Shown piece after piece: positions 24,936 through 43,110 of a DNA stretch of 45,298 bases. Made by a program: the position numbers and the translations under genes. The notes below the pieces were generated by a model, which worked only from the letters and a program-made list of their open reading frames with translations, made no database searches and had not been told where the DNA came from. The DNA is taken from positions 1-45,298 of the forward strand of contig JAENWE010000055.1 of assembly GCA_016650185.1 (NCBI GenBank). Reading direction: 5' to 3'. This DNA is from Vicinamibacteria bacterium. GTDB lineage: Bacteria > Acidobacteriota > Vicinamibacteria > Fen-336 > JAGNNV01. Each line of letters starts with the position of its first letter. Within the stretch, counting starts at the first letter, position 1.

Positions 24936-25604
24936 ATGCTCAGCCCGATCACCGACCGTCGCATGCGGTTCGCTCTGGGCCTGGGCTTCGCCCTCCCCTT
25001 CGCGGCCTGCACGTCGGCGCCGACCACCCCAGCCACCCCGAACATCGTCTTGATCGTGGCCGAAGGAACGGGGTTTCCCTTCGAAGATCCCGCGTTTTCG
25101 AAGTCCCCCGCCCTCGGACGGCTGCGCCTCAACTCTCGCCCCTTCGACCTTATGTTCAGCGACGATGCGGCCTGGTCCGATACGCGGGCCACTTTGCTGG
25201 GCGGAGTTGAGGGAGGGAATCTGGTCAACGCCCTCAAGACGAAAGGGTACCTGACCGCCGCGGTGACCGCGAACGGGAAGGCGGCCGGCGGTTTCGACCA
25301 AATGACGCAGGCGAGATCATCGGAGGTCGCAACCCAAATCCTTATGGCTTCGACGCCGCGGGAGAGCGCCCGACCTTCGCCTTCGCGGCGCTGGATTTGC
25401 GCGAGGTTCCTGCCGAGGCGCCGACGCCTGAGATCGAAGCGCCTCCGCTGGAGGTACCCGCCATCGCGATCGCGGATCGTGCGCCCCTCGATCCGGCGGG
25501 CTTTCTCGTCACTCCGCCGCCCCGCGAGCCCGCGGATCGAAACGGTCTGGCGGCGCGACGCGCGGCGGCGTTCCGCCTGCTGGACCAGCAGATTGATGAC
25601 TTGA
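24936..25604 (+). CDS. 5' part of a two-domain sulfatase gene: lipoprotein signal plus degenerate sulfatase N-half. Only ~24936-25310 looks coding in this frame.
   Basis: MRFALGLGFALPFAAC is lipobox-like. NIVLIVAEGTGF replaces the sulfatase NIVLIxxDDxG, and AAWSDTRATLLGG replaces C-x-P-x-R-xxxxTG. After ~aa 125 this frame turns Arg-rich nonsense, while the -1 frame becomes protein-like and continues into 25397..27475. Confidence 0.55.
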   Translation: MLSPITDRRMRFALGLGFALPFAACTSAPTTPATPNIVLIVAEGTGFPFEDPAFSKSPALGRLRLNSRPFDLMFSDDAAWSDTRATLLGGVEGGNLVNALKTKGYLTAAVTANGKAAGGFDQMTQARSSEVATQILMASTPRESARPSPSRRWICARFLPRRRRLRSKRLRWRYPPSRSRIVRPSIRRAFSSLRRPASPRIETVWRRDARRRSACWTSRLMT

Positions 25605-27475
25605 TCAAGGGTCTTGAGAAGCGTGGGCAGCTTACGAGAACCATCATCGCCCTTGTTTCCACCGGCCCTGCGCCGCGTCCTCAAAGGGCCGCGCCCCCGC
25701 GCCCGGATCTGCTCTTCGAGGATTGGTTACGCGGGCTGGCCCTGATCCAAACTCCGGGGATGAATCAGCCCGGCCAGAGCGCGGCCACCCTGGCCCTCCT
25801 CACGGACGTGGCGCCCACCCTCGCTTCACTCGCCGGAGCGTCGTCAGGCCTGGATGGAAAACAGGCTGGCCTCGACCTCAGCCCGGCGGTTCGTGACCCG
25901 AAGCACGTCGTACGAAAGGCGCTGCTGGCCAGCGCGACCCGCATGCCGCCGCGGATCGGCCGCAGCGTGAGGTCCAACCGATTTCGGTTCACGCAGTGGC
26001 CGGACGGAAGCGAGGAACTCTTCGATGAGCAGGCCGACCCGCACGAGTGGACCAATCTCGCGAGCGCTCCGGCGATGCAGGCGCAGAAACGCGAACTTGC
26101 GCAACGCCTCGAACGCAAGACCTCCTTAGCCCCCGCCGCTCCCGCACGTCCGACCTCGGGGCGACGGCTGAATGTCGTGATGATCATCGCCGACGACCTC
26201 ACCGCGCAGTACCCTCAGCTCGGAGACGTGAAGACGCCCAACCTGGATCGCTTGCGGGCACGCGGCCGGTCCTACGAGAAGGCCTATGCGCCGGCTCCTT
26301 TCTGCACTCCTTCCCGGGCGGCTTTCCTCTCGGGGCTCTCCCCCGCCCGCCTGCAGCTGCAGCACGAGGATCCGTTCAAGGAGATCTTCACACCGCGCGT
26401 AAGGCTTATGCAGGAGCAGTTTCAAGACGACGGCTATTTCACGGCCTCGGTGGGCAAGGTCTGGGATAGCCAGCCGGGTGAGACACGCGGCTGGGACCTC
26501 AACGAGTGGGCCCCTCCGCTGCCTGCGGGCAAGGTCGAATCCCCGGCGCGGCTCATGAAGAACATGCCGGTCGAAGGCGGCCCAACCACGAACGAGGACG
26601 ACGTCGAGGGAGACGGGAGGCGGGCCCGGTTCGCGGTGAAGGTCCTGGAGGAGAAGCGAGAGAAACCGCTATTCCTGGCCCTCGGCCTGGTGCGACCGCA
26701 TGTGGCCTGGATCGCGCCGCAAAAATACTTCGACCTGTACCCGCCTGACCGAATCAAGTTCTCGCCCGCGCCGGCGAACGATCTGGACGACATTCCCGCC
26801 ATCGCGGTCAAGAACCAGGCGCAGGCGCTGCCAAGGTTGATGCTCGCGGGACGTGAGCCCGGGGGACTGTCGAACGATCCGGAGGAAGCGAGGCGCGGCC
26901 TTTCCGCCTACTTCGCCTGCGTCACGTTCATGGATGCTCAACTCGGGGTCGTCCTGGACGCGCTCGATCGCGGCGATCGCTGGAAGGACACCATCGTGGT
27001 CTTCTTCGGCGACAACGGCCACCACCTCGGGGACCATGGCGGTCTGTGGCGCAAGAACACGCTCTTCGAGGAATCCCTGCGCGTACCGATGGTGGTGGCG
27101 ATGCCGGACCTGCCTCAGCCCGGCGTGGCCACGAACGCTCTCGCCGACCTGATCGACATCTATCCGACCCTCGTTGATCTGACCGGCATCGCCCGGCCCG
27201 GGAACCTCGATGGAGTCTCGCTGAAGCCCACCCTCCTGAACCCGAAAGCGTCGGTGCAGGACACGTTGATTCAGTACCGTCCCATCGAACCCGCCAGAGT
27301 GGGCTACTCACTTCGGACCACCGACTATCGCTACACCCTGTGGCCCGATGGCTCCGAGGAGTTGTACGACCTTCGCGTCGATCCCGCCGGTTTTCGGGAT
27401 GTTTCGAAGCAGGACGGCCGTCGTGAGACGCTGGCTTCGCTGCGGAAGAGCATCGAGTCGATGGTCCACGACTGA
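25397..27475 (+). CDS. sulfatase: C-half of a degenerate sulfatase domain followed by a complete, catalytically intact sulfatase domain
   Basis: The second domain has NVVMIIADDL, the FGly motif FCTPSRAAFLSGL, and FFGDNGHHLGDHG. Both halves end with the same module (RFTQWPDGSEELFDEQADPHEW and RYTLWPDGSEELYDLRVDP). The listed TTG start is probably artificial, since the frame is protein-like upstream to ~25300. Confidence 0.85.
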   Translation: MREVPAEAPTPEIEAPPLEVPAIAIADRAPLDPAGFLVTPPPREPADRNGLAARRAAAFRLLDQQIDDLIKGLEKRGQLTRTIIALVSTGPAPRPQRAAPPRPDLLFEDWLRGLALIQTPGMNQPGQSAATLALLTDVAPTLASLAGASSGLDGKQAGLDLSPAVRDPKHVVRKALLASATRMPPRIGRSVRSNRFRFTQWPDGSEELFDEQADPHEWTNLASAPAMQAQKRELAQRLERKTSLAPAAPARPTSGRRLNVVMIIADDLTAQYPQLGDVKTPNLDRLRARGRSYEKAYAPAPFCTPSRAAFLSGLSPARLQLQHEDPFKEIFTPRVRLMQEQFQDDGYFTASVGKVWDSQPGETRGWDLNEWAPPLPAGKVESPARLMKNMPVEGGPTTNEDDVEGDGRRARFAVKVLEEKREKPLFLALGLVRPHVAWIAPQKYFDLYPPDRIKFSPAPANDLDDIPAIAVKNQAQALPRLMLAGREPGGLSNDPEEARRGLSAYFACVTFMDAQLGVVLDALDRGDRWKDTIVVFFGDNGHHLGDHGGLWRKNTLFEESLRVPMVVAMPDLPQPGVATNALADLIDIYPTLVDLTGIARPGNLDGVSLKPTLLNPKASVQDTLIQYRPIEPARVGYSLRTTDYRYTLWPDGSEELYDLRVDPAGFRDVSKQDGRRETLASLRKSIESMVHD

Positions 27476-28535: not shown

Positions 28536-30398
28536 CTAATGCGTGCCCGTACGCCGAGCCGAGTCGAACACTCGTTCCAAGGTCCCTTTCCAGCTCGTAG
28601 GTGTATCAGCTCCCTCGACGCCGACGAGGCTGAGCATTTCGCCGCCCTCCACGCAGTGCCGCACCCGGACGTGCACGTCGTTGATGACCCATGACGAAAC
28701 CGCGACAGTGCGTGTCCCTGTTCGCAATTCTTCGACCTTCTCGAGCTTGGCCTGGACGCCGGGAGTCACCGTGGCCTCGAGCATGGCCTTGAGGCGCGCG
28801 AGGAACTCGGGGCCCTGGGTCGGTCCTGTCCAAGGCTCGACGCCGATGGTGAACGACGCGGGATCGTAGCGCCGGTCGCCAAACACATAGTTCCATTCGC
28901 CCGCACCGCCTGCCTCTCCGGGGGTCATCGCCAGGGTCTCGGGCACGTCGATCTGCCAGGAGGTGGGCGCGAGCGCCACGGTCCGCCAACCCGGGCCGTC
29001 ACGCAGTCCCCAGGGCCGGCCCGTCACGATGGCAAGGGCGAGGCAGAGAGGAACGCCAACGGCCGCGACGGTGGCGGCGATCTTGACGGTCCGGTCCTTC
29101 GCCGACGGCGGCCGTCCCTCCTCGCGCTCCTTCCCCACCAGCCTGCCTGAGAGAAGGGTCCATCCGAGAACCGCCCCGACCAGCCCGCCCCCCAGGTGCG
29201 CCGCCATGTCAACACCGGGCAGAAGGGAGACTCCGAGGTTCAGCAGGAGCGTGGTCCTGAGGGCCTTGTTCAAGCCGGCCAGAACGTCGTCTGGGAGGAG
29301 GCCATGGCCCTGCCGGGCCAAAGTCCAGGTGGCGGTCATGAGGCCCCAGTTGGCGCCGGAGAAGCCTACCGACATGCCATGCGGGTGGCCGAAGGTGCTG
29401 GCGACCGTCCCGCCCAAGGCGGACGCCACCAACACGATCAGGAGCCGCGCCGGACCCACGAGTCTTTCAAGCAACACTCCAAAGGCCAGGATGCTCACGT
29501 TCCCGGCCAGGTGGGTGAAGGAGCCGTGGAGGAGAGGGGCCGAGAGAAGGCGCCAGGGCTGGGTGGGGACCATCTCGGAAATCAGGGCGCCCATTCGGGG
29601 CAGGGCCAGGCCTGGATCACCGAGGCCCCACCACAACTGCGCCACGAAGACCAGGGCCAGAAACGCCATGACCGCCAAAGAGACGGCTGCAGAGCTCTTG
29701 CGGAACCTGGTCAAAGCCCGGTCCTCCTCTGGGTCGGGTGGCCGCTCGAGAATCTGTCGCTGACTCTCTGTCAGTGCTGCCAGTTCACCCTTCCGAGCCT
29801 GCTGAGCCACTCGTTTCAGGGCACCGTTTTCCTGCGGAAGCGTCGCCACGAGCGAGAGCGCAGGCCGGTCCAGCCAGACGGATCCGTCGCATCCGAGTTG
29901 CATGACGGTCACCCGCGAGGAAGAAACAGCCCTGCGGGTTGCCTGGATCTTCTCCCTCGCCTTCTCATCTCCTCCAACAACGATGAACGTGGATGGCGCC
30001 GACGCCTCGCGCCGAAACTGCGCAAGCCGTTCACCCAGAGCCGCTAGAGCGCCCGGCTCATCCTGGTCGAAGAGCCAGAGACTGACCTCCCGTCGTGTCT
30101 CCGGCAGCACCACCCGGGTTTCACATAGATCGCTTTTTGCAATTCGAGCCCCCGTCCGGATCTCGACGCCCGCGCAGAGAAGTTCCTTCAGCAGTGCGTC
30201 GCGCAGACGCTGTGGCGAGGCGAGGGCCGCGGGCGGAGGACGACGCGACCTCCACCAGCGGGCGGCGGCGCGGCGGCATCGGTTGAGGACGTAGGCGCCA
30301 AAGGCGCCAATCGCAAGAAACCCGATCGTAATCGCCAAGAGAAACAGCCATCCCTTGACCGGCACGCCGAGGATCTCTCGCTGCAGGACCGCGCTCAT
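28536..30398 (-). CDS. rhomboid family intramembrane serine protease with extra N-terminal TM, ~200-aa cytoplasmic domain and ~150-aa C-terminal extracytoplasmic domain
   Basis: Start set at ATG 30398 (MSAVLQ..., AGGAG 12 nt upstream). The 78 aa upstream in the track ORF are Arg-rich. Rhomboid core motifs: LLHGSFTHLAGN, catalytic GFSGANWG, and AHLGGGLVG. Confidence 0.85.
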   Translation of the reverse strand: MSAVLQREILGVPVKGWLFLLAITIGFLAIGAFGAYVLNRCRRAAARWWRSRRPPPAALASPQRLRDALLKELLCAGVEIRTGARIAKSDLCETRVVLPETRREVSLWLFDQDEPGALAALGERLAQFRREASAPSTFIVVGGDEKAREKIQATRRAVSSSRVTVMQLGCDGSVWLDRPALSLVATLPQENGALKRVAQQARKGELAALTESQRQILERPPDPEEDRALTRFRKSSAAVSLAVMAFLALVFVAQLWWGLGDPGLALPRMGALISEMVPTQPWRLLSAPLLHGSFTHLAGNVSILAFGVLLERLVGPARLLIVLVASALGGTVASTFGHPHGMSVGFSGANWGLMTATWTLARQGHGLLPDDVLAGLNKALRTTLLLNLGVSLLPGVDMAAHLGGGLVGAVLGWTLLSGRLVGKEREEGRPPSAKDRTVKIAATVAAVGVPLCLALAIVTGRPWGLRDGPGWRTVALAPTSWQIDVPETLAMTPGEAGGAGEWNYVFGDRRYDPASFTIGVEPWTGPTQGPEFLARLKAMLEATVTPGVQAKLEKVEELRTGTRTVAVSSWVINDVHVRVRHCVEGGEMLSLVGVEGADTPTSWKGTLERVFDSARRTGTH

Positions 30399-30691
30399 GG
30401 ATGTTCTTTGTCTCCTGCGCCACGCGGGCTGACTGCGTGCCACCGAAGATCCACAGGTGCGCGAGCAGCGGCCGACACTTGTAGGAGCAGTGTACGCCAG
30501 TTTCGGCTGACTGCGGGATCGGCCCCGATGAGTCTGACCAGTGCCATCAAGACTGAGAGGTTTGGGACCGACCTGCGGCGAGCGTGATACCGGGAATCCA
30601 GGCCGAAGGCAGTATCGGCGCCGGTTGGACACGCGCTGGAATCCCTGACGAAACCCGGTTAATCTCGGAACCGAATGCTATTGGCCCAAGT

Positions 30692-32608
30692 ATGACCCAG
30701 CCGCAACGGAATCCCGGTGCCGTCTGCTCCCGGTGCGGAGCCAGGATCAAGGGCGACAGTGCGGCCTGCTTCGAGTGCGGGCATTCCCGGCACGCCGCCA
30801 GTCTGAAGAAGGGGCAATTGATCGACGGTCGCTATGAACTGATAAGCGAACTGGGCCAGGGTGGAATGGGCACGGTCTATAAAGCCTACGACCGCACGCT
30901 CGACGAAAAGGTCGCGCTGAAAGTTCTTTCGGAAACTGCCGGAGATTCGGCGGAGGCCGACCGGAGATTCCGCGCTGAGATCAAGCTCGCGCGCAGGATC
31001 AGGCACGCGAATGTTTGTGGCATTCACGAGTACGGTGAGAGCGATGGCATCAAGTACATCGTGATGGAGCTTGTAGTTGGAGAGGATCTAAAACAGTACT
31101 TGCGCGCCCGGGGGAAATTATCGACCCACGACGCCGTCGGCCTGGTGCGCCAGATCTCTGACGGGCTTCAGTCGATCCACGACGCAGGAGTCATTCATCG
31201 GGACCTCAAGCTTGCCAACGTCATGAGGGACAGCACCGGCCGGTTGCGCCTGATGGATTTCGGACTTGCCAAGGGCATGGGCGATGCGAAGGCCACGGCA
31301 ACCGGGATGATCCTCGGCACGGCCGCGTACATGAGTCCGGAACAGGTGATGGCCGGGACGGTCGACTCCAGAACTGACCTCTATTCCCTGGGAATCATGA
31401 CCTTCGAGTTGCTGACCGGACGCGTCCCCTTCCGGGAAGCAGATCCGATGGTCCTTTTGAGTCGGCAGCTCCACGAAGCGCCGCCGCTCGATGACCCGGA
31501 TATTCCTGCTGCCCTTGTGCCCGTCCTCGCCAAGGCCCTGGCCAAAGCGCCCGAAGAACGCCACGCGAGCGCCGTTGACTTCGCCTCCGAGTTGACCCGG
31601 GCGTCCGGTGCTTCTCTCGGCGCGGCAGGGCCGGGCATGGAGCTGGGGGCTGGCGAAGCAACCACGGCGCTTCCTGCAGCCGCCTCGCGATCCATCAGTC
31701 GGCCCGCACCTTCGACCACCTCGACGGAGGCGAGAGGAAGGGTCGCCCCGCCGGCGCCACGATTTGAGCCCACCCTGGCCTTCGTGCAGCGATCCGGCGT
31801 GTCTCGGCCGCCCGAGGCACTGAGCCGGGGCACGACAGGAGCACCACAAGCGCCTAGATCCCCTGGAGCTGACGGACCGCGCTCCGGCGTGACGTCGGCG
31901 GCGCGGGCGTCCAAAGCCCCGGCGGCGCGCCATCGTTGGGGTCTTGGGATGGGTATTGCCGCAGGGGCGATCATGGCCGTCGGGCTCGGCGTTTGGCTGG
32001 CCTTTCGGGCGGTGGAGATGGCATCCTCGATGACGACATCCGACCGCCCGTCGGTGACCACATCTCCGATCGCAACCAACGCTCAGCACGATCAACCGAT
32101 CGCAACGATGCCCGTGAACCCTGAGCCGTCGATGCCGCCTCCGTCGACTCCACCCCCTCAAACCGCGGCTCCGACCCCGCGGCCACAGAGCAGCGCCACG
32201 AGGCTACTCGACCCTTCTCGAGCCCGGGGCGGCGTGGATTTCTCAGGAAACTGGGTCGGCAAGGCCACGGAGAAGACGCCGGAAGGCGTCGTTACCTTCG
32301 ATGTCGACGCCTTGCTCCGATCGAATGATCCTACCTTCGGCGGCCGGATGAAGGTCGACAGCCCGGCGGGCCCTCTCGACGTTTTGATCAACGGCGAAGG
32401 TGTGGAGGTGACGGTCACGGCGGTCAACGGCAAGCCAACTCTCTGTGTGACGGTGGACCAGTTCAACCTGACGACTCTGGCCACCGGAGCGCGCCAGTCA
32501 CAGACGGGCAATACTTACTACTTTCAGTTTGCTGGTGAGCGACTTTTGGGCTGGGACAAGAGCGGTGCCGTCACCATCGAGCTGAAGCGCCGAAGCCCAA
32601 ATCGCTGA
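30692..32608 (+). CDS. Hanks-type Ser/Thr protein kinase: N-terminal zinc ribbon, kinase domain, Pro-rich linker, one TM, C-terminal ~124-aa unrecognised domain
   Basis: CSRCGARIKGDSAACFECGH; kinase motifs GQGGMGTVY, VALKVL, HRDLKLANVM, DFGLAK, SPEQ; TM GMGIAAGAIMAVGLGVWLAF; C-terminal domain VDFSGNWVGKATEK...ELKRRSPNR. ATG 30692 was chosen over the track's 30584 (uncertain). Confidence 0.88.
   Translation: MTQPQRNPGAVCSRCGARIKGDSAACFECGHSRHAASLKKGQLIDGRYELISELGQGGMGTVYKAYDRTLDEKVALKVLSETAGDSAEADRRFRAEIKLARRIRHANVCGIHEYGESDGIKYIVMELVVGEDLKQYLRARGKLSTHDAVGLVRQISDGLQSIHDAGVIHRDLKLANVMRDSTGRLRLMDFGLAKGMGDAKATATGMILGTAAYMSPEQVMAGTVDSRTDLYSLGIMTFELLTGRVPFREADPMVLLSRQLHEAPPLDDPDIPAALVPVLAKALAKAPEERHASAVDFASELTRASGASLGAAGPGMELGAGEATTALPAAASRSISRPAPSTTSTEARGRVAPPAPRFEPTLAFVQRSGVSRPPEALSRGTTGAPQAPRSPGADGPRSGVTSAARASKAPAARHRWGLGMGIAAGAIMAVGLGVWLAFRAVEMASSMTTSDRPSVTTSPIATNAQHDQPIATMPVNPEPSMPPPSTPPPQTAAPTPRPQSSATRLLDPSRARGGVDFSGNWVGKATEKTPEGVVTFDVDALLRSNDPTFGGRMKVDSPAGPLDVLINGEGVEVTVTAVNGKPTLCVTVDQFNLTTLATGARQSQTGNTYYFQFAGERLLGWDKSGAVTIELKRRSPNR
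32234..32608 (+). repeat. coding copy K of the ~124-aa 'FSGNW' domain (kinase C-terminus); inverted relative to copy R2
   Basis: About two-thirds amino-acid identity to peptidase repeat R2 by hand alignment (~80/124). Includes a 31-nt identical stretch TGGATTTCTCAGGAAACTGGGTCGGCAAGGC. Confidence 0.85.
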
Positions 32609-32929
32609 AGCGGGCCCTGGAATAGTCAGTTCTAATCGAACCCCCTTCGGGCCCAGGAAGCCAACGAGAATGCCCTTGTTGCGGCAGGCCTTGGTAACGT
32701 TGGCGCTGAGGGCAAGAAGCGTCAGTACGCTGGCGCATCGAACGAACATCGCCAGCTCCCAGAGCCATGGCGCCCTGGATCCCAGGGCGTGGGCGGCGAA
32801 ACCGGTAGTAGACGGAGCGCGCCCAATGTGTTCAGGGCGTCGGCAAGTGTCAGCGGAAAAAGGAGAGCGGTTCCGACCGCCGGGAGCGTAGGGGCAACAA
32901 GCGGGCTGTTCGGTCAAGTCCCCGTCGGG

Positions 32930-33304
32930 TCAACGATTTGCGCCTCGGCGCTCGAGCTCGACGGTTACGGTGCCGCTCTCGTCCTGGCCCACAAGGCGCC
33001 CAGCAACGAGCTGGAGGTAGTAGGTGTTGCCCGGCTGCGGCTGACGCTCTCCCGTGGCCAACATCGTCATGATGAGCTGCCTCACGGCCAGACGGAGCGT
33101 TGGCTTGCCGTTAATCGTCGTGACCGTCGTCTCGACGCCGTCGCCGTTGATCAAAACGTCAAGAGGGCCCGTCGGGCCGTTGATCTTCGTCCGGCCGCCG
33201 AACGTGGAACCACTCGATTGGAGCACGGCGTTGACCTCGAAGGAGACGACGCCCTGCGGCGACTTCTCGGTTGCCTTGCCGACCCAGTTTCCTGAGAAAT
33301 CCAA
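32930..33304 (-). repeat. coding copy R2 of the 'FSGNW' domain (peptidase C-terminus); copy R1 lies at ~33347-33712
   Basis: LDFSGNWVGKATEKSPQGVVSFEV...VELERRGANR. Even the antisense ORFs of the two loci in the track are visibly alike (32158..32511 vs 33054..33356). Confidence 0.85.
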
Positions 33305-34585
33305 TTTGCTCTGGACAGTTGGCGGATTCTGGCCAGTCGCAGGCGCGCCCTGCTGAGCAAGGTCGATTCCTACATCGCCGGTCTCGTCCTGGCCGACTAG
33401 ACCATTGGCCGACCGCTGCAAGTAATAGGTGTTGCCGATGTCCACGTAGCGCTCGCCAGTGGCAAGAACCGTGAAGGCGATCTGCTGGACCGCCAAACGC
33501 AAGGTCGGCTTGCCTTGAATAGTGACCACCGAGGACTCGACACCCTGGCCGTTCAGCAGTACCTCGATTGGGCCTTGGGGGGTGGGTATCTTCGTGCGAG
33601 CACCGAACGTGGTGTTTCCAGTCTGATCAATCAATGCATTGACATCGTAAGTGAGGACACCTTGCGGCGTCCTCTCTGTCGCTCTGCCCGCCCAGTTTCC
33701 GGCGAAGTCGCCCGCTCGTCCCGGGGCTCCTGCCTGCGGCGCGGGTGCGGAGCTACGCTGGGCGCCCGAGATCTCAAACGGGGCCATTGTCCTGGCCCAG
33801 GCCTTCTGGTAGGACGTGAACTCCCTTGGACACCGTACCGCACGCTCCTCGGGGAGCTGGATAGGCACGAGGATCGAGAATTTCTCCGGGTTACTTCCGT
33901 AAACCGTGCACATGATGTTGAAGAACCGCTGGGGCTCGAGCGAGTGCTCGTCCGCGTAGTGACCGGCTTGTATCGCTTTTTGGAGCGCCGCGGGCAGGCC
34001 AGCTTCAGGTTTGGCTTCAGAATAGAACGCGGCGGCAGACAACGCGATTTCTGGGCTGCCGGACGCGATCGCCAAGAGCGTCGCGAACTGGTCGACCGCG
34101 TCTTCCTCCCTTGCCGTCACGCCCAGATCCAGCTCGCCGAGTGAATAGTGACCAAGTTCATGGGCGAGGACGAAGTAGATGTAGTTGCGGGTTAGTAGGA
34201 GAACTTGGCTCGGGGTCTTACCCGCCTCAAGAAACCTCTTGGCGACCACGTTGACATACTCATAGCAGATGTGGACTCCGTGATCTTCAGGGTTGTAGAA
34301 AGCGTTCACGATCCCACACTGCTCGACGGTGACCTTGACGGGCCGCGGGAACCGCCACGTTTCTCCCATGGCTTTGACGAGCTCTGGAAAGGGGCAGCCG
34401 ATTGGGTGGTCGGGGCGGCAGTCGAATATCTCCTTCTGGAAAATTCTCAGCCCTTCGTCTGCCGGCGGCCGGACCACATAGCTTGGGACGCCGTAGTCGG
34501 CAAGGGCTACTGCGGGCGGCATGAGGGCGAACGCCGCGGCGAAGGCAAGGTGCGACAGGGTCAGTAAGACAGTGCGGCGTTCCAT
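32930..34585 (-). CDS. secreted putative zinc metallopeptidase (DUF4344-like, HELGH) followed by two tandem 'FSGNW' domains
   Basis: Start at ATG 34585 (AAGGAG upstream) gives the signal peptide MERRTVLLTLSHLAFAAAFALMPPAVALA. NAFYNPEDHGVHICYEY...FVLAHELGHYSL...EEDAVDQFA...DEHSLEPQRFFNIMC fits my recollection of the DUF4344 putative peptidase pattern. Two ~122-aa repeats follow. Confidence 0.8.
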   Translation of the reverse strand: MERRTVLLTLSHLAFAAAFALMPPAVALADYGVPSYVVRPPADEGLRIFQKEIFDCRPDHPIGCPFPELVKAMGETWRFPRPVKVTVEQCGIVNAFYNPEDHGVHICYEYVNVVAKRFLEAGKTPSQVLLLTRNYIYFVLAHELGHYSLGELDLGVTAREEDAVDQFATLLAIASGSPEIALSAAAFYSEAKPEAGLPAALQKAIQAGHYADEHSLEPQRFFNIMCTVYGSNPEKFSILVPIQLPEERAVRCPREFTSYQKAWARTMAPFEISGAQRSSAPAPQAGAPGRAGDFAGNWAGRATERTPQGVLTYDVNALIDQTGNTTFGARTKIPTPQGPIEVLLNGQGVESSVVTIQGKPTLRLAVQQIAFTVLATGERYVDIGNTYYLQRSANGLVGQDETGDVGIDLAQQGAPATGQNPPTVQSKLDFSGNWVGKATEKSPQGVVSFEVNAVLQSSGSTFGGRTKINGPTGPLDVLINGDGVETTVTTINGKPTLRLAVRQLIMTMLATGERQPQPGNTYYLQLVAGRLVGQDESGTVTVELERRGANR

Positions 34586-35298: not shown

Positions 35299-37506
35299 GT
35301 GTTCACGATGCGCCCATTTTTCCCGTTCAGCGCTGGTCTGCCGCGACCCCTTGGCGCCAACCCTCGTGAAGGCGGCGTCAACTTCGCGCTTTACACCGGT
35401 CATGGGACCGCCGTAGAACTCCTGCTCTATGCGCGAGCGCACGATCCCGAGCCCGCCCAGACCATACGGCTCGAGCATCGCCAGCATCGCTCGGTCAACA
35501 CCTGGCATGTCTTCGTTCTCGGCGTGGGCCATGGACAGTGCTACGCCTGGCGAGTGCACGGACCATGGAATCCGTCAGGCGGGCACCGCTTTGACGCGAC
35601 GCTTTCGCTGCTCGATCCATACGCTCGCCTCATCGTGCCGCGCACTCCCGAGGACGCGGCGCACGAACCCGAGCACGGCGCGTCACGATCGGGGCGTTAT
35701 ATCAGCGTCGTAGTCGACCCCAGGGGCTTCGACTGGCGGGATGTCACACCCCCCCGCGTCCACCCGTCCGAACGCATCATCTACGAGATGCACCTCGCAG
35801 GTTTCACCAAGGACCCCAGTGCCGTGGCCAGCCGCCCCGGCACCTTTGATGCGCTCATCGAGCGCATCCCCTGGATCGTCGAGCTGGGCGTCACGACCGT
35901 CGAACTCCTTCCCATCTTCAGCTTCGATCCGCATGCCCCCGATCGTCATGACCCCACGACTGGAGAATCGCTGCGCGACTACTGGGGCTATAACCCTCTG
36001 GGCTTTTTCTCGCCCCACCACGCCTACCTCGACCGCGAGCCGACGGGGGCCGACTCCGTACAGGCGCTGCAGGAGCTCGTGCGCGCCCTGCATGGGGCCG
36101 GCCTGGAGGTTTTCCTCGACGTGGTCTTCAATCACACCGGCGAGTTCGGGCTCGATGGTCCGACTCACGGTTTCCGCGGCATCGACAACGCGACCTACTA
36201 TCTGGTGAGCGGCGACGGCTCGGGGCGCTATGTGGATTTCAGCGGGTGTGGCAACACCGTGCGCTGCGGCCATCCCGCGGTCCGCCGCATGATTCTGGAC
36301 AGTCTGCGGTACTGGACCACGTACTTCCACATCGACGGCTTCCGTTTCGACCTCGCCTCGATCCTCTCTCGCGACGACCAGGGTCGTCCGGTCGAGCACC
36401 CGCCCCTGCTCTGGGAGATCGAGGGCGACCCGGTGCTCGAGAACGCGACCCTCGTGGCCGAGGCGTGGGACGCGGGCGGGCTTTATCAGGTCGGGCGCTT
36501 CCCGGGCGAGCGATGGTGCGAATGGAACGGGCTCTTCCGCGACGACGTCCGGCGCTTCTGGCGCGGCGAACCGAACCTGAGCGGCGCCGTGGCCCAGCGG
36601 ATGCTCGGCAGCCCCGACCTCTACGAGGCGCAGGATCGTCAGCCCTCGCAGGGCGTGAACTTCGTGACCTGCCACGACGGCTTCACCTTGGCCGATCTCG
36701 TGTCGTACGAACACAAGCGCAACCTTGGAAACGGCGAGGACAATCGCGACGGTGGGGAGACGCGGACCGCCATGAACTGCGGCGTCGAGGGACCGACCGA
36801 CGACCCGGCGGTGAACGCTCTGCGGCGGCTCATGACCAAGAACCTGTTGACCACACTCTTGATCGCGCAGGGCACGCCGATGCTCCTCTCGGGGGACGAG
36901 ATCGGCCGCACTCAGCGGGGTAACTCCAACGCCTGGTGCCAGGACAACGCCGTGTCCTGGACGGACTGGGGCCTCCTGCGCGCGAACGCCGACCTCTATC
37001 GCTTCGTGTGCCTGCTCATCCGCTTCCGGCGGTCCCATCACAGCCTGCACCGCTCGCGCTACCTGCTGGGCCACGACGCGCCCGAGGGCCACGATACCCC
37101 GGGCTACACGCGGGTCCGATGGCATGGCCTTGAGCCAGACCGGGCGGATTGGGGCCCTGAGAACCGGCTCCTCTGCTACACACTGACCCCGGCCGAAGAC
37201 GACGTCGCCCTCCACATCATGCTCAACGCCGGCGCGGATGTGGTGGAGGTGGTTCTCCCCAGGGAGCCGCGCGGCGGCGCCTGGCTGAGGGTGATCGACA
37301 CATCGCTCTCCTCACCCGATGACATCGGGCCACTCGGGAGCTACAAGTCGATCAAGGGCCAGGCGTACTCAGTCGTCGGGCGCTCGGCAGTGGTGCTCAT
37401 CGGCAATGCCTCGCTGCATTCGGCGAGCGAACGCGCGACGCAGGCCGTCGTCGTCCCTGGCTCGCTCCGGGCTGACCCGGCCCGCCACCGGACCGTCACG
37501 GAATGA
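35299..37506 (+). CDS. glgX: glycogen debranching enzyme GlgX (GH13)
   Basis: 735 aa (GTG 35299; alternative ATG 35308). PLGANPREGGVNFALYT..., GH13 regions DVVFNHT, GFRFDLAS, EAWD and FVTCHDGFTL. Confidence 0.92.
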   Translation: MFTMRPFFPFSAGLPRPLGANPREGGVNFALYTGHGTAVELLLYARAHDPEPAQTIRLEHRQHRSVNTWHVFVLGVGHGQCYAWRVHGPWNPSGGHRFDATLSLLDPYARLIVPRTPEDAAHEPEHGASRSGRYISVVVDPRGFDWRDVTPPRVHPSERIIYEMHLAGFTKDPSAVASRPGTFDALIERIPWIVELGVTTVELLPIFSFDPHAPDRHDPTTGESLRDYWGYNPLGFFSPHHAYLDREPTGADSVQALQELVRALHGAGLEVFLDVVFNHTGEFGLDGPTHGFRGIDNATYYLVSGDGSGRYVDFSGCGNTVRCGHPAVRRMILDSLRYWTTYFHIDGFRFDLASILSRDDQGRPVEHPPLLWEIEGDPVLENATLVAEAWDAGGLYQVGRFPGERWCEWNGLFRDDVRRFWRGEPNLSGAVAQRMLGSPDLYEAQDRQPSQGVNFVTCHDGFTLADLVSYEHKRNLGNGEDNRDGGETRTAMNCGVEGPTDDPAVNALRRLMTKNLLTTLLIAQGTPMLLSGDEIGRTQRGNSNAWCQDNAVSWTDWGLLRANADLYRFVCLLIRFRRSHHSLHRSRYLLGHDAPEGHDTPGYTRVRWHGLEPDRADWGPENRLLCYTLTPAEDDVALHIMLNAGADVVEVVLPREPRGGAWLRVIDTSLSSPDDIGPLGSYKSIKGQAYSVVGRSAVVLIGNASLHSASERATQAVVVPGSLRADPARHRTVTE

Positions 37507-40014: not shown

Positions 40015-43000
40015 CTAAAAAGTCGCCCGCAGGCCGATCTGAATCTGCCTCGATGAGGTAACGGTTGATCTGATCCGCCCGAACGTGCTGAGGGGCGCCT
40101 CGGTGCTGGCCGCGCCGGTGAAGGCGAGAAGCGCTGGGGAGCCGAAATTCGCTCGATTGAGAATGTTGAAGGCCTCCAAGCGGACTTCCAACCGCCCGCG
40201 GTTGGAAAGCGCATGCAGGGGTATGAATCGGACCAGGGCGAGGTCGACGGTTCGAAGGTCGGGGCCGCTGAAAGCTCCTCGACCGGAATCGCCGAAAGTG
40301 CCCGGCTCCTGCAGGACGAAGGCGGCGGGGTCGAACCACTGAGCCGGGTTGCCAAGGACGGCGCTTTGCGCGGTCCGGCCGGGGGCGAGCGACGGCCTGT
40401 CCACACCGAGCCCAGGTCCCAAGGACGGGGACCAACGCGATCGCGACCGATTGCTGGCGATGAAGACGGTGAGCGGATTGCCGCTGCGGTACCGTCCGAT
40501 CATCGATAGCTGCCAGTCGTCCCGGAAATTCCAGGTCCCGGTCAGAACCAGGTTGTGGGTGGCGTTGAAATCAGCCGGCCCCTTGTTCGTATCCAGACCG
40601 AAGGGTTCAGGGAAGGCGGACGTGGTGCCGTTGGTCGCATCGGAAAAGAACGTCGAAGCCTGGGTGGTGTCGATGGTGCGGGCAAGGGTGTAGGAGGCTT
40701 GAAGCCTCAGGCTCTTCGTGTTGTGGCGCAGATCGAAGATCCCGGCGTTGTACCAGGACTCGCCGTCGCTCGTCTTTTGTTCGATGACTCCAAACGCGGT
40801 GTTCGGTCGTGCTGCGGTGGCCGAATAGAAGACAGTGCCGTCGGCGCGCAGCTCGGGCGTCGGAACGTTGACGTCGCCGCTTCGAAGAAGGTGCGAACCT
40901 CGGGAGCCCGCGTAACCTACGGTGAGGACCGTGTTGCTCCAGAGTTCTTTCTGTACATTCAAGTTGAAGACGTGGGCCCGGGGGTTGTCCAGGTCCCATT
41001 GGACCGGTCGAATGGAATTCGCGACTCCCCGGGCGAAGGGAGGTTGCGGGAAGGTCGGATTGGCGATGACCGCTCGGGGGCTGGCCGGCGGATTCGTAAT
41101 AGTCACGATGAGGTTTTGCTGGTTGTTCACGTTGTAGTAGAGGCCATAGCCGCCGCGGAGAGCCAGCTTTCCATCACCTCGGGCGTCCCAGGCGAAGCTG
41201 ACGCGCGGTGACACATTCAACTTCGGCGAACTGCCGTAGGGCGCTCCGACGGTTGGCGCCAGGTCCTCCAACGACACGAGTGTCGAATCCCGCCCAAGGG
41301 CGTCCTTCGGGAGCGTCGTCATCTCGTAGCGAAGACCGCCGTGAACGGAGAGACGGTCGGAGACGCGGAACTCGTCCTGAAAATAGGCGCCGAATAGGGT
41401 GAAGCTCCACAGTCGCTCAAGAGAGGCTTCGGGGGTGAGGCCGATGAAACGAATAGGGGTGTTGCGCAAGAAACCCTCAAGGCTGCCAAAGGCGTAGATC
41501 CCGAGACTGAACGTGGGATTGAGAAGGTCGTTCTTGTATCGCTCGACGAGCGCTCCGCCTTTGATCAGGTGATTCCCACGGGCCTGGACGAAGGAATATT
41601 CGGCGCCGAGCACGCGTTGCTTGATGATGAGGTCTCCCGAGGTCTGCGGGCCGAAGCGGCCCGGGATGCCCCCGATATCGATGCCGCCCACGAGGGGCCG
41701 GCCCTCCACGAAAGGCGGCAGAGGACTCGACAGATTGGCCTCGACAGTCTGGCCGATGCGGGTGGAACTCAGGGAAAGTCGCAAGGTGTGGAGTCGGGTG
41801 CCCGAGGTGGCGTGCCGGAATTCCGCGGTCGCGAACTGATTGGTGGAGAGGAAGGTGCGCGGAAACTGGGGAAAGTCGGTCGGCAGATACTGGTCCGCGG
41901 TGTCGCGGGTATAGCGAACAAACATCTGATCGCTGTTGCTCAGGTTGTGATCGAGGCGCGCCTGGAGGAAATTCTGGCGGATCGTCTGATCAAACGGAAA
42001 GCGCAGCTCGGCCAGACCGCCGCCCAGAGAAGGGCCGTTGGGGAGGGGAAAGACGTCGAGGTAGGGACGCACCGCGGGGGCCACACCCACCTCGATCAGC
42101 TGCATCGGATTCGCGGGGTTGGGTAGAAGCCCGTTTCGAGCGGCCAGATCGGGGACCACGGTGGAGATATTCCTCCCCAGGTTCTCCCGAAGGCCTTCAT
42201 AGCCCACGAAGAAAAAGGTCTTGTCCTCCTTGATCGGACCGCCCAGGGTCGCCCCAAACTGATTGCGGAGGAAGTCCGGTTTCACGCCCTGGTCGAAGTA
42301 GTTGGGCGAATCGAGGGCTTCGTTGCGGTGATATTCGAAGAGGCTGCCTTGCCAGTCGTTGCCGCCTGACTTTGTGGCCACCAGAATCTGGCCGCCGAAG
42401 TTGCGGCCGTATTCGGCCGAATAACTGTTCGTCTCCACCCGAAACTCTCGAACCGTCTCGGTTCCGAGCGTCGTGCCCGCGGCACTTCCCGCCGGGCCGT
42501 TGGTGAAGTCGTTCAGAGGCGTTCCGTCGAGCATATAGACGTTGGATCGCGGATCGAGGCCGTTGATCGACGCGCCCACTCCGTGAGCCACCACGGAGCC
42601 CCCATCGCGATGAGAGAAGGCCACCACTCCGGGCTGCAGGAAGGCGAGGTCCGTGTAGTTCCGGCCGTTCAGCGGCAGGTCCTTGATCTCCTGTTCGCCC
42701 ACCAGAAACGACAGCTCGCCCGTCCCCGTTTGAACCTTCGATCCCTCGGCGACCACCGTCACCTCTTCGGTCCGCGCCCCGGGCTCGAGTATCAGGCTCA
42801 CCGTGGCGGGCACACCCAGCACCACCAGCACATCGGGCCTTACCGCCGGCTTGAAACCATCGAGAGTCGCTCGGACCTCAAACCGACCCAAGGGCAGGAC
42901 CGGCATCACGAAGCGCCCGTTGGAACCCGAGACGACTTCACGGATCAAACCCGTTTCCATATGTCGCGCCACCACGGCGACACCCGGAAGGGCGGCGCCG

Positions 43001-43110
43001 GAAATATCCCGCAGCGTTCCTTCGATGGAACTCGAAGTTGCCTGAGCGGAAGCGCCTGCCGGGGACATCAGAAGAAGACCGAGGACGAGAACTGTTGCTG
43101 TCCTATTCAT
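40015..43110 (-). CDS. TonB-dependent receptor with N-terminal carboxypeptidase-regulatory-like domain
   Basis: 1031 aa. Signal peptide, IEGTLRDISGAALPGVAVVARHMETGLIREVVSGSNGRFVMPVLPLGRFEVRA (CarboxypepD_reg), a plug region (DLPLNGRNYTDL), a long beta-barrel, and a C-terminal aromatic residue (…GLRATF). Confidence 0.88.
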   Translation of the reverse strand: MNRTATVLVLGLLLMSPAGASAQATSSSIEGTLRDISGAALPGVAVVARHMETGLIREVVSGSNGRFVMPVLPLGRFEVRATLDGFKPAVRPDVLVVLGVPATVSLILEPGARTEEVTVVAEGSKVQTGTGELSFLVGEQEIKDLPLNGRNYTDLAFLQPGVVAFSHRDGGSVVAHGVGASINGLDPRSNVYMLDGTPLNDFTNGPAGSAAGTTLGTETVREFRVETNSYSAEYGRNFGGQILVATKSGGNDWQGSLFEYHRNEALDSPNYFDQGVKPDFLRNQFGATLGGPIKEDKTFFFVGYEGLRENLGRNISTVVPDLAARNGLLPNPANPMQLIEVGVAPAVRPYLDVFPLPNGPSLGGGLAELRFPFDQTIRQNFLQARLDHNLSNSDQMFVRYTRDTADQYLPTDFPQFPRTFLSTNQFATAEFRHATSGTRLHTLRLSLSSTRIGQTVEANLSSPLPPFVEGRPLVGGIDIGGIPGRFGPQTSGDLIIKQRVLGAEYSFVQARGNHLIKGGALVERYKNDLLNPTFSLGIYAFGSLEGFLRNTPIRFIGLTPEASLERLWSFTLFGAYFQDEFRVSDRLSVHGGLRYEMTTLPKDALGRDSTLVSLEDLAPTVGAPYGSSPKLNVSPRVSFAWDARGDGKLALRGGYGLYYNVNNQQNLIVTITNPPASPRAVIANPTFPQPPFARGVANSIRPVQWDLDNPRAHVFNLNVQKELWSNTVLTVGYAGSRGSHLLRSGDVNVPTPELRADGTVFYSATAARPNTAFGVIEQKTSDGESWYNAGIFDLRHNTKSLRLQASYTLARTIDTTQASTFFSDATNGTTSAFPEPFGLDTNKGPADFNATHNLVLTGTWNFRDDWQLSMIGRYRSGNPLTVFIASNRSRSRWSPSLGPGLGVDRPSLAPGRTAQSAVLGNPAQWFDPAAFVLQEPGTFGDSGRGAFSGPDLRTVDLALVRFIPLHALSNRGRLEVRLEAFNILNRANFGSPALLAFTGAASTEAPLSTFGRIRSTVTSSRQIQIGLRATF

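Follow-up and report, generated by a model that had tools for sequence, protein, structure and literature searches.

Three domain copies at the locus

The DNA analysed here (the window) is a stretch of 45,298 nucleotides, contig JAENWE010000055.1 of a metagenome-assembled genome (MAG) from a Vicinamibacteria bacterium (Acidobacteriota), and it holds two convergent genes, a Hanks-type Ser/Thr kinase gene on the plus strand (30692..32608) and a DUF4344 metallopeptidase gene on the minus strand (32930..34585). Both genes end in the same domain of about 120 amino acids, of which there are three in-frame copies: K at the C-terminus of the kinase, and R1 and R2 at the end of the peptidase. K occupies 32237..32605 (+; residues 552-674 of the kinase open reading frame (ORF), its predicted extracytoplasmic C-terminus) and is followed by the stop codon at 32606-32608. 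R2, the second and C-terminal copy, lies at 32930..33307 (-; peptidase residues 467-591 plus stop), and R1, the first copy, at 33308..33712 (-; residues 332-466, including a linker of ~14 residues to R2). A hidden Markov model (HMM) built from the three copies and run against the six-frame translation of the whole window recovered all three at domain E-values of 1e-68 to 1e-72 (1e-71 for K) and detected no fourth copy in the 45 kb (next best E>1). A preliminary description of this DNA had proposed a ~124-residue domain occurring three times within 32234-33712; both ORFs and all copies are confirmed, and the span agrees with the coordinates obtained by pairwise local alignment (K 32228-32608, R2 33307-32930, R1 33712-33308). 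K and R2 are identical at 80/124 residues (64.5%; BLOSUM62 score 428), exactly the number that had been counted by hand, R1 and R2 at 73/122 (60%), and K and R1 at 60/120 (50%). K reads ...DFSGNW...GNTYY...ELKRRSPNR-stop and R2 closes with ...ELERRGANR-stop. That these two form the closest pair, both C-terminal and both ending in RRxxNR, had been noted before and is explained below by an inverted duplication that includes the stop codon.

With a reading frame open from 30584, the kinase probably starts at the ATG at ORF residue 37. The Pkinase family PF00069 matches residues 84-326 with E 1.8e-51, and the translation contains HRDLK and DFG, identifying a Hanks-type enzyme. Weak zinc-ribbon matches cover residues 46-74 (CxxC...CxxC). 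The corresponding NCBI protein, MBK5254860.1, starts later (MIDGRYEL, 596 amino acids) and loses this ribbon, which is also present in the closest kinase relatives among the matches listed and in the kinase beside the peptidase gene of a second contig, L001 (see below); translation more likely begins at the ATG at 30692. A hydropathy scan found a single stretch with Kyte-Doolittle hydropathy above 1.6, the putative transmembrane helix W452-F474 (31937..32005, +), which is preceded by KAPAARHR and is followed by a Pro/Ser/Thr-rich linker of ~75 residues (32006-32227, +) leading to K. By the positive-inside rule the protein would adopt an N-in/C-out topology that places K outside the cytoplasm, as in PknB-type bitopic kinases, with K as its only ectodomain. 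Among 120 relatives listed, in none of which the new domain was detected, the closest share the zinc-ribbon, kinase, transmembrane and linker layout and have kinase domains 49-57% identical to that of the window, and they end either in PEGA, placed just where K sits (P0021, P0022, P0024 and P0025), or in TonB_C or HEAT domains. The PEGA ectodomains of Acidobacteriota kinases thus occupy the same extreme C-terminal site, but they measure ~70 residues and have no sequence relation to K, and the window kinase has no Pfam match to PEGA (PF08308).

The peptidase, entered at NCBI as a 'hypothetical protein' (MBK5254861.1), matches PF14247 over residues 107-305 with E 2e-50 (172 bits against a cut-off of 29.6), which assigns it to DUF4344. 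Its catalytic domain spans 33791..34387 (-) and contains HELGH at residues 182-186 (DNA 34148-34162). The closest protein known to us through the searches described below, P0001, is a 552-residue peptidase with two copies of the domain, encoded on the 285-kb ENA metagenome contig L001; over its entire length it matches the window peptidase at 59-61% identity, and it keeps HELGH. Although the window ORF is open to 34705, the alignment with P0001 shows homology from M41 onwards and conservation of the mature N-terminus, ADYGVPSY. A start at M41 is therefore most likely, with a predicted signal peptide at 34499..34585 (-; residues 41-69, MERRTVLLTLSHLAFAAAFALMPPAVALA then D), delimited by hydropathy and by the onset of conservation after ALA/D. 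Given the single transmembrane helix of the kinase, oriented by the positive-inside rule, and the signal peptide of the peptidase, all three domain copies would be extracytoplasmic.

Family searches and predicted fold

The domain resisted assignment to any known family, as the preliminary description had held. Pfam-A returned no family at E<=1 for each of the isolated copies and NCBIfam none for R2. PDB sequences gave noise alone with a single-sequence query (all E>=0.6, for example nitrite reductase at E 0.6) and no match at E<=10 with a profile query. Foldseek found no match at E<=1e-3 in the PDB for either of two independent confident models, and none in BFVD. A confident placement in an existing family, looked for in Pfam and PDB, was thus not found. 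Lineage-specific orphan domains are common in metagenomic Acidobacteriota.

AlphaFold2, run on the three-copy alignment, gave an R2 model with a pLDDT of 89.3 (two of five models confident); when K was modelled on a five-copy alignment, each of the five models had a pLDDT of 91-93 (best 92.9) with a pTM of 0.83. Both runs predict 11 antiparallel beta-strands in the same layout, joined by tight turns and devoid of helix, in keeping with the all-beta fold suggested earlier, and the invariant glycines (NG.G, GNTYY) fall mostly in or beside the short inter-strand turns. The models point to an up-and-down antiparallel meander that is probably barrel-like; they support a small antiparallel meander or barrel as fold class, but not its placement in any particular superfamily. 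Correspondingly, of an earlier suggestion of a lipocalin- or calycin-like barrel, what stands is a weak resemblance (best Foldseek E 4e-3, TM-scores 0.39-0.57). The recurring weak matches are up-and-down barrels or half-barrels, namely Rv0813 (E from 4e-3 to 1.3e-2, prob 0.96-0.99, TM-score 0.39/0.28, root-mean-square deviation (rmsd) ~12 Å), LprG (E ~1e-2, TM-score ~0.3), nitrobindin (E 0.03, TM-score 0.40), nitrophorin (TM-score 0.40-0.42), Cap15, Gid4, RseB and LolB. BFVD yielded no better match; its closer superpositions included an unnamed protein (TMq 0.49), a Cap15-type effector (TMq 0.48) and a lipocalin.

How close are these likenesses? Among solved structures, the S-2TM-beta barrel of Cap15 (PDB 7n34, 7n35) gives the best global superposition (E 0.02-0.17, prob 0.93-1.00, TMq 0.46-0.52, TMt 0.53-0.57, rmsd 4.5-6.4 Å, identity 10-13%); it is a small, helix-free, up-and-down antiparallel beta-barrel, as the new domain probably is, and Cap15 itself binds a ligand. 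However, Cap15 has 8 strands, lies on the cytoplasmic side behind two transmembrane helices and binds cyclic dinucleotides in CBASS defence, whereas the new domain has 11 predicted strands, would be extracytoplasmic and follows a signal-peptide peptidase or a single-pass kinase; its TM-scores to Cap15 are borderline (0.46-0.57), and no CD-NTase gene adjoins the two window genes. The calycins (the nitrobindin/Rv0813 group, PDB 2fwv and 3wjb, and the lipocalins and nitrophorins) share the up-and-down topology predicted for the new domain and a G-x-W in the first strand, a calycin signature: F-[SAT]-G-[NS]-W opens strand 1 of the new domain, with G and W invariant in all five copies known. The basic residue (Arg/Lys) that closes the last strand of calycins and packs on the Trp, by contrast, is missing from both R1 copies, which end this strand with DLAQQ and DLGPQ, where K and both R2 copies have EL[KE]RR; strand number differs as well (8 in lipocalins and 10 in FABP and nitrobindin against 11 here), superposition on this group is poor (TM-score 0.28-0.40, rmsd ~12 Å), and there is no Pfam clan match. 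LolA, LolB, LprG and RseB, which recur in the Foldseek lists, are periplasmic half-barrels of 11 antiparallel strands with envelope lipids as ligands, but these carriers measure 180-280 residues and possess a helical lid (TM-scores 0.19-0.34), unlike a helix-free domain of 120 residues.

A CBASS-type operon (SMODS nucleotidyltransferase, E2-CBASS and SAVED-HNH effector) lies at 1-2322 of L001, ~8 kb from the P0001 gene. Its proximity is probably a coincidence with respect to the Cap15 likeness, because the peptidase is secreted and no such operon lies near it in the window.

Distribution of the domain

An exhaustive HMMER search, which covered 1.84 billion (1.84e9) representatives of ~15 billion proteins clustered at 50%, had three hits: the window kinase (P0002), P0001 and P0003. 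We rejected the last of these (E 1.7e-6) as a relative, as it consists of DUF5666 repeats whose score sums four weak partial matches and as hhalign gave it a probability of 2.9%. Scans with back-translated motifs found no relative in GTDB species-representative genomes or JGI metagenome contigs. A word-indexed protein search with the 125 residues of R2 alone also found no match; this marks a limit of sensitivity rather than absence, since the collection holds the window peptidase (100% identical), the kinase copy and P0001, and R2 and the kinase copy share an exact word of 13 residues. The domain is a real, undescribed and very narrowly distributed family that is known from two uncultured organisms only.

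Its catalytic partner is found in more varied company. Other DUF4344 (PF14247) peptidases carry PPC, MG2, a duplicated catalytic domain and others, likewise as modular add-ons flanking the catalytic domain; their folds and families differ, and none is related to the new domain. P0005 has two complete DUF4344 catalytic domains in tandem, P0010 two unassigned, beta-rich C-terminal repeats of ~110 residues (residues ~390-607), and P0012 one unassigned, beta-rich C-terminal domain (residues ~265-394), which was tried as a remote relative and rejected (hhalign probability 1%). Uncharacterised accessory modules seem to gather around DUF4344 as a hub. To our knowledge, no member of DUF4344 has been characterised. 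The family is listed among the domains of Xanthomonas antibacterial effectors of the type IV secretion system (PMC6536674).

Origin and evolution of the kinase copy

At the DNA level, K and R2 form an inverted repeat of 374 nt and 80% identity, which is far beyond chance. Its left arm (32235..32608) comprises K and the kinase stop codon and its right arm (32930..33303) the peptidase stop codon and R2, so that the repeat starts at the first domain residue and ends exactly at both stop codons; outside it, identity drops to the random level (0.28-0.31) within 90 nt on both flanks. Between the two convergent stop codons lies a unique spacer of 321 nt (32609..32929) with no Rfam match and no convincing small ORF; a terminator-like hairpin on its minus strand (32881-32866) is not above shuffle expectation.

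The five copies known from the two organisms indicate the direction of this duplication. Orthologous peptidase copies are closest between organisms (71% amino acid identity between the R1 copies of the window and P0001, 67% between the R2 copies), and the R1-R2 tandem must therefore predate the split of the two lineages. K and the window R2, on the other hand, are separated by a synonymous divergence (dS) of 0.34 against at least 0.9 for all other pairs, and they have in common an xxNR tail that is absent from P0001. These comparisons show that the tandem is ancestral on a secreted DUF4344 zinc metallopeptidase and that K derives from R2: in the lineage of the window, an inverted copy of the last 374 bp of the peptidase gene became joined in frame to the 3' end of the kinase gene facing it. 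Capture by the kinase gene after the lineage split is the simplest reading.

The captured copy has retained an intact reading frame over 123 codons and a stop at the identical position. It preserves 47/55 of the positions at which the four peptidase copies agree, against 31/64 of the variable ones (Fisher p=2e-5). With R2 of P0001 as outgroup, K has accumulated 18 unique amino acid changes and the window R2 only 7 (p=0.043), and 8 positions invariant in the peptidase copies are altered in K, including R to C and L to V in the 'TLRL' strand. K is thus under purifying selection on the core of the fold, yet it evolves faster than its parent, a pattern consistent with adaptation to a new host protein or with partly relaxed selection.

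The copies and the spacer are also overlain by antisense ORFs of up to 168 codons (32498-32917 (-), 32789-33295 (+), 33054-33356 (+), 32158-32511 (-)), which are typical shadow ORFs of high-GC DNA. Those over K and R2 resemble each other and the antisense frame of L001 in BLAST because K and R2 are inverted copies, and such look-alikes could mislead an automated repeat or gene caller.

Genomic neighbourhood

Directly next to each of the two domain-bearing peptidase genes known, and convergent with it, lies a gene for a Ser/Thr kinase. The one beside P0001 (L001, 11665-14622, -) encodes a multi-transmembrane N-terminal region with faint GAF matches and a C-terminal kinase domain, and it has no copy of the domain. 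Its architecture differs from that of the window kinase, and a wider synteny comparison of the two contigs brought out nothing shared beyond the peptidase (60% identity) and a generic match between kinases (39.5% between the catalytic domains). None of three more distant DUF4344 loci (L002, L003, L005) has a kinase neighbour, and we therefore rejected such adjacency as a general feature of the family. Where it occurs, it could reflect chance in the kinase-rich Acidobacteriota, or a functional link that is older than the capture of the domain.

On its other side, the window kinase is divergent from a gene for a 698-residue rhomboid-family protein (28536-30632, -; PF01694 at residues 357-494), with the 5' end of the rhomboid ORF (30632) overlapped by the kinase ORF, open from 30584. 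The rhomboid protein has a region of ~350 residues at its N-terminus and an extracytoplasmic one of ~180 at its C-terminus, both without Pfam match. Three envelope-related genes, for a rhomboid protease, a receptor kinase and a secreted metallopeptidase, are thus adjacent in the window; L001 lacks the rhomboid neighbour. Further neighbours are unremarkable for this phylum: a CarboxypepD_reg-TonB-dependent receptor, a sulfatase, a GlgX-type isoamylase, SurE, a GMC oxidoreductase, SppA and a BamB-like protein. A Pfam scan placed such ordinary genes at, among others, 40015-43110 (-), 25397-27475 (+) and 35299-37506 (+), and it found no mobile-element gene among the neighbouring proteins scanned.

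Discussion

What might a domain do that is carried by both a secreted peptidase and its neighbouring kinase? The best explanation of the whole, to which we give about an even chance, is that it is a new all-beta extracytoplasmic domain which was captured by the kinase and serves both proteins as a shared binding module. On the peptidase, the domain would target the enzyme to its substrate or to a component of the envelope; on the kinase, it would act as a sensor. Kinase and peptidase would then share an extracytoplasmic ligand, or bind related ones, by a logic like that of PASTA domains. PASTA offers a functional analogy rather than homology: in PBP2x and the PknB-type kinases a binding domain is common to an envelope enzyme and a bitopic Hanks-type kinase, and it occurs, like the new domain, in tandem C-terminal copies, but it has an unrelated alpha+beta fold of ~70 residues, is found widely among Gram-positive bacteria and is known to bind muropeptides and beta-lactams. 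The varied accessory domains of other DUF4344 peptidases fit an exchangeable targeting module.

Several observations weigh against a shared binding module acquired by the kinase and under selection there, and they bear in part on rival accounts of K itself. That the inverted repeat is an artefact of assembly might be entertained because the window is metagenome-assembled and inverted chimeras occur in assemblies. Such chimeras yield near-identical arms, however, whereas here 73/369 positions differ with a codon-position bias of 32/13/28, and each arm is fused in frame to a different gene; the divergence of 20% with its codon-position bias excludes an artefact for practical purposes, and we put its chance at next to nil. 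The low dS between K and R2 could instead reflect gene conversion between older copies, although no other kinase with the domain is known, which we count against this alternative. Another account takes K for a functionally neutral, slowly decaying passenger of a local inverted duplication, with only the peptidase copies of consequence. K and R2 indeed show a high dN/dS (ratio of nonsynonymous to synonymous divergence) of 0.57 against 0.13-0.30 for orthologous pairs, and the excess of unique changes in K and its substitutions at otherwise invariant positions point the same way; the direct test for purifying selection, pN<pS between K and R2, is marginal (p=0.022), and K could be partly relaxed. 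Nevertheless, the frame and the position of the stop are intact, the substitutions avoid the core, AlphaFold2 folds K with a pLDDT of 92.9, and a kinase without K would have no ectodomain at all, so that we consider a mere passenger quite improbable. Finally, the structural models are based on very shallow alignments, and five domain sequences, from two organisms, are too few for conservation to tell structural residues from ligand-contacting ones.

Other accounts accept a functional domain and differ in its ancestry or its partner. One of them, somewhat unlikely in our estimate, derives the domain by extreme divergence from one of the known up-and-down barrel superfamilies (calycin, LolA/LprG-like or Cap15 S-2TM-beta) and would give it, as there, a hydrophobic or nucleotide-like ligand. 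The top Foldseek matches of two independent models (Rv0813, LprG, Cap15, nitrobindin, Gid4 and nitrophorin), the recurrence of a Cap15-type effector and a lipocalin in BFVD and the invariant G-x-W speak for such an origin; the lack of any structural match below the threshold, with TM-scores of 0.2-0.4 and rmsd of 10-12 Å for Rv0813, LprG and nitrobindin, the strand number, the absence of helix and lid, the missing basic residue in R1 and the complete lack of a sequence-profile signal in Pfam or PDB speak against it. At the level of the fold, a diverged binder of this kind would be compatible with the shared binding module. Alternatively, the domain may be a homotypic protein-protein module, whereby K binds R1 or R2, or the copies dimerise, and the kinase senses or recruits the peptidase itself. 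This would suit a domain encoded by two neighbouring genes whose products share a compartment, its tandem arrangement in the peptidase, and the convergent kinase beside both domain-bearing peptidases but at none of the distant loci. Yet K has diverged faster than R2, and the kinase on L001 is free of the domain, which implies that pairing with a kinase copy cannot be the ancestral role of R1-R2; we regard homotypic binding as unlikely. The C-terminal barrels might also regulate their own peptidase, as inhibitor, pro-domain or folding chaperone, with the kinase copy as a receptor or decoy for the active site. The calycin superfamily includes small beta-barrels that inhibit serralysins, and one of them, 1smp_I, does occur in a Foldseek list, but at rank 37 with weak scores (E 0.31, TM-score 0.22-0.26, prob 0.14) and not among the 50 best matches of the second search; pro-domains do not usually come as two copies in tandem, and there is no evident cleavage site or N-terminal trunk that could plug an active site. 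Intramolecular regulation therefore strikes us as very improbable.

We return to the shared binding module as our preferred explanation. In its most far-reaching form, which we offer tentatively and as a possibility on the doubtful side, it would comprise a new ligand-binding fold together with the recent birth of a receptor kinase that, through an inverted copy of the substrate-recognition module of the adjacent peptidase, senses exactly what the latter binds or releases, that is, an enzyme-sensor pair that assembled itself in an Acidobacteriota genome. The reach of such a finding is limited by the two uncultured carriers known, and a specialist may find it neat rather than surprising. If the preferred explanation is right, the locus would add to Pfam-type databases a new domain family with a confidently predicted fold and no detectable relatives, and it would represent an unusually clean natural case of a bacterial receptor kinase gaining a sensor domain, through a 374-bp inverted duplication of which both breakpoints and both products are intact and in which the acceleration of the new copy can be measured. 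It may also offer a first way into the function of the DUF4344 peptidases and of one among the numerous orphan Ser/Thr kinases that Acidobacteriota possess.

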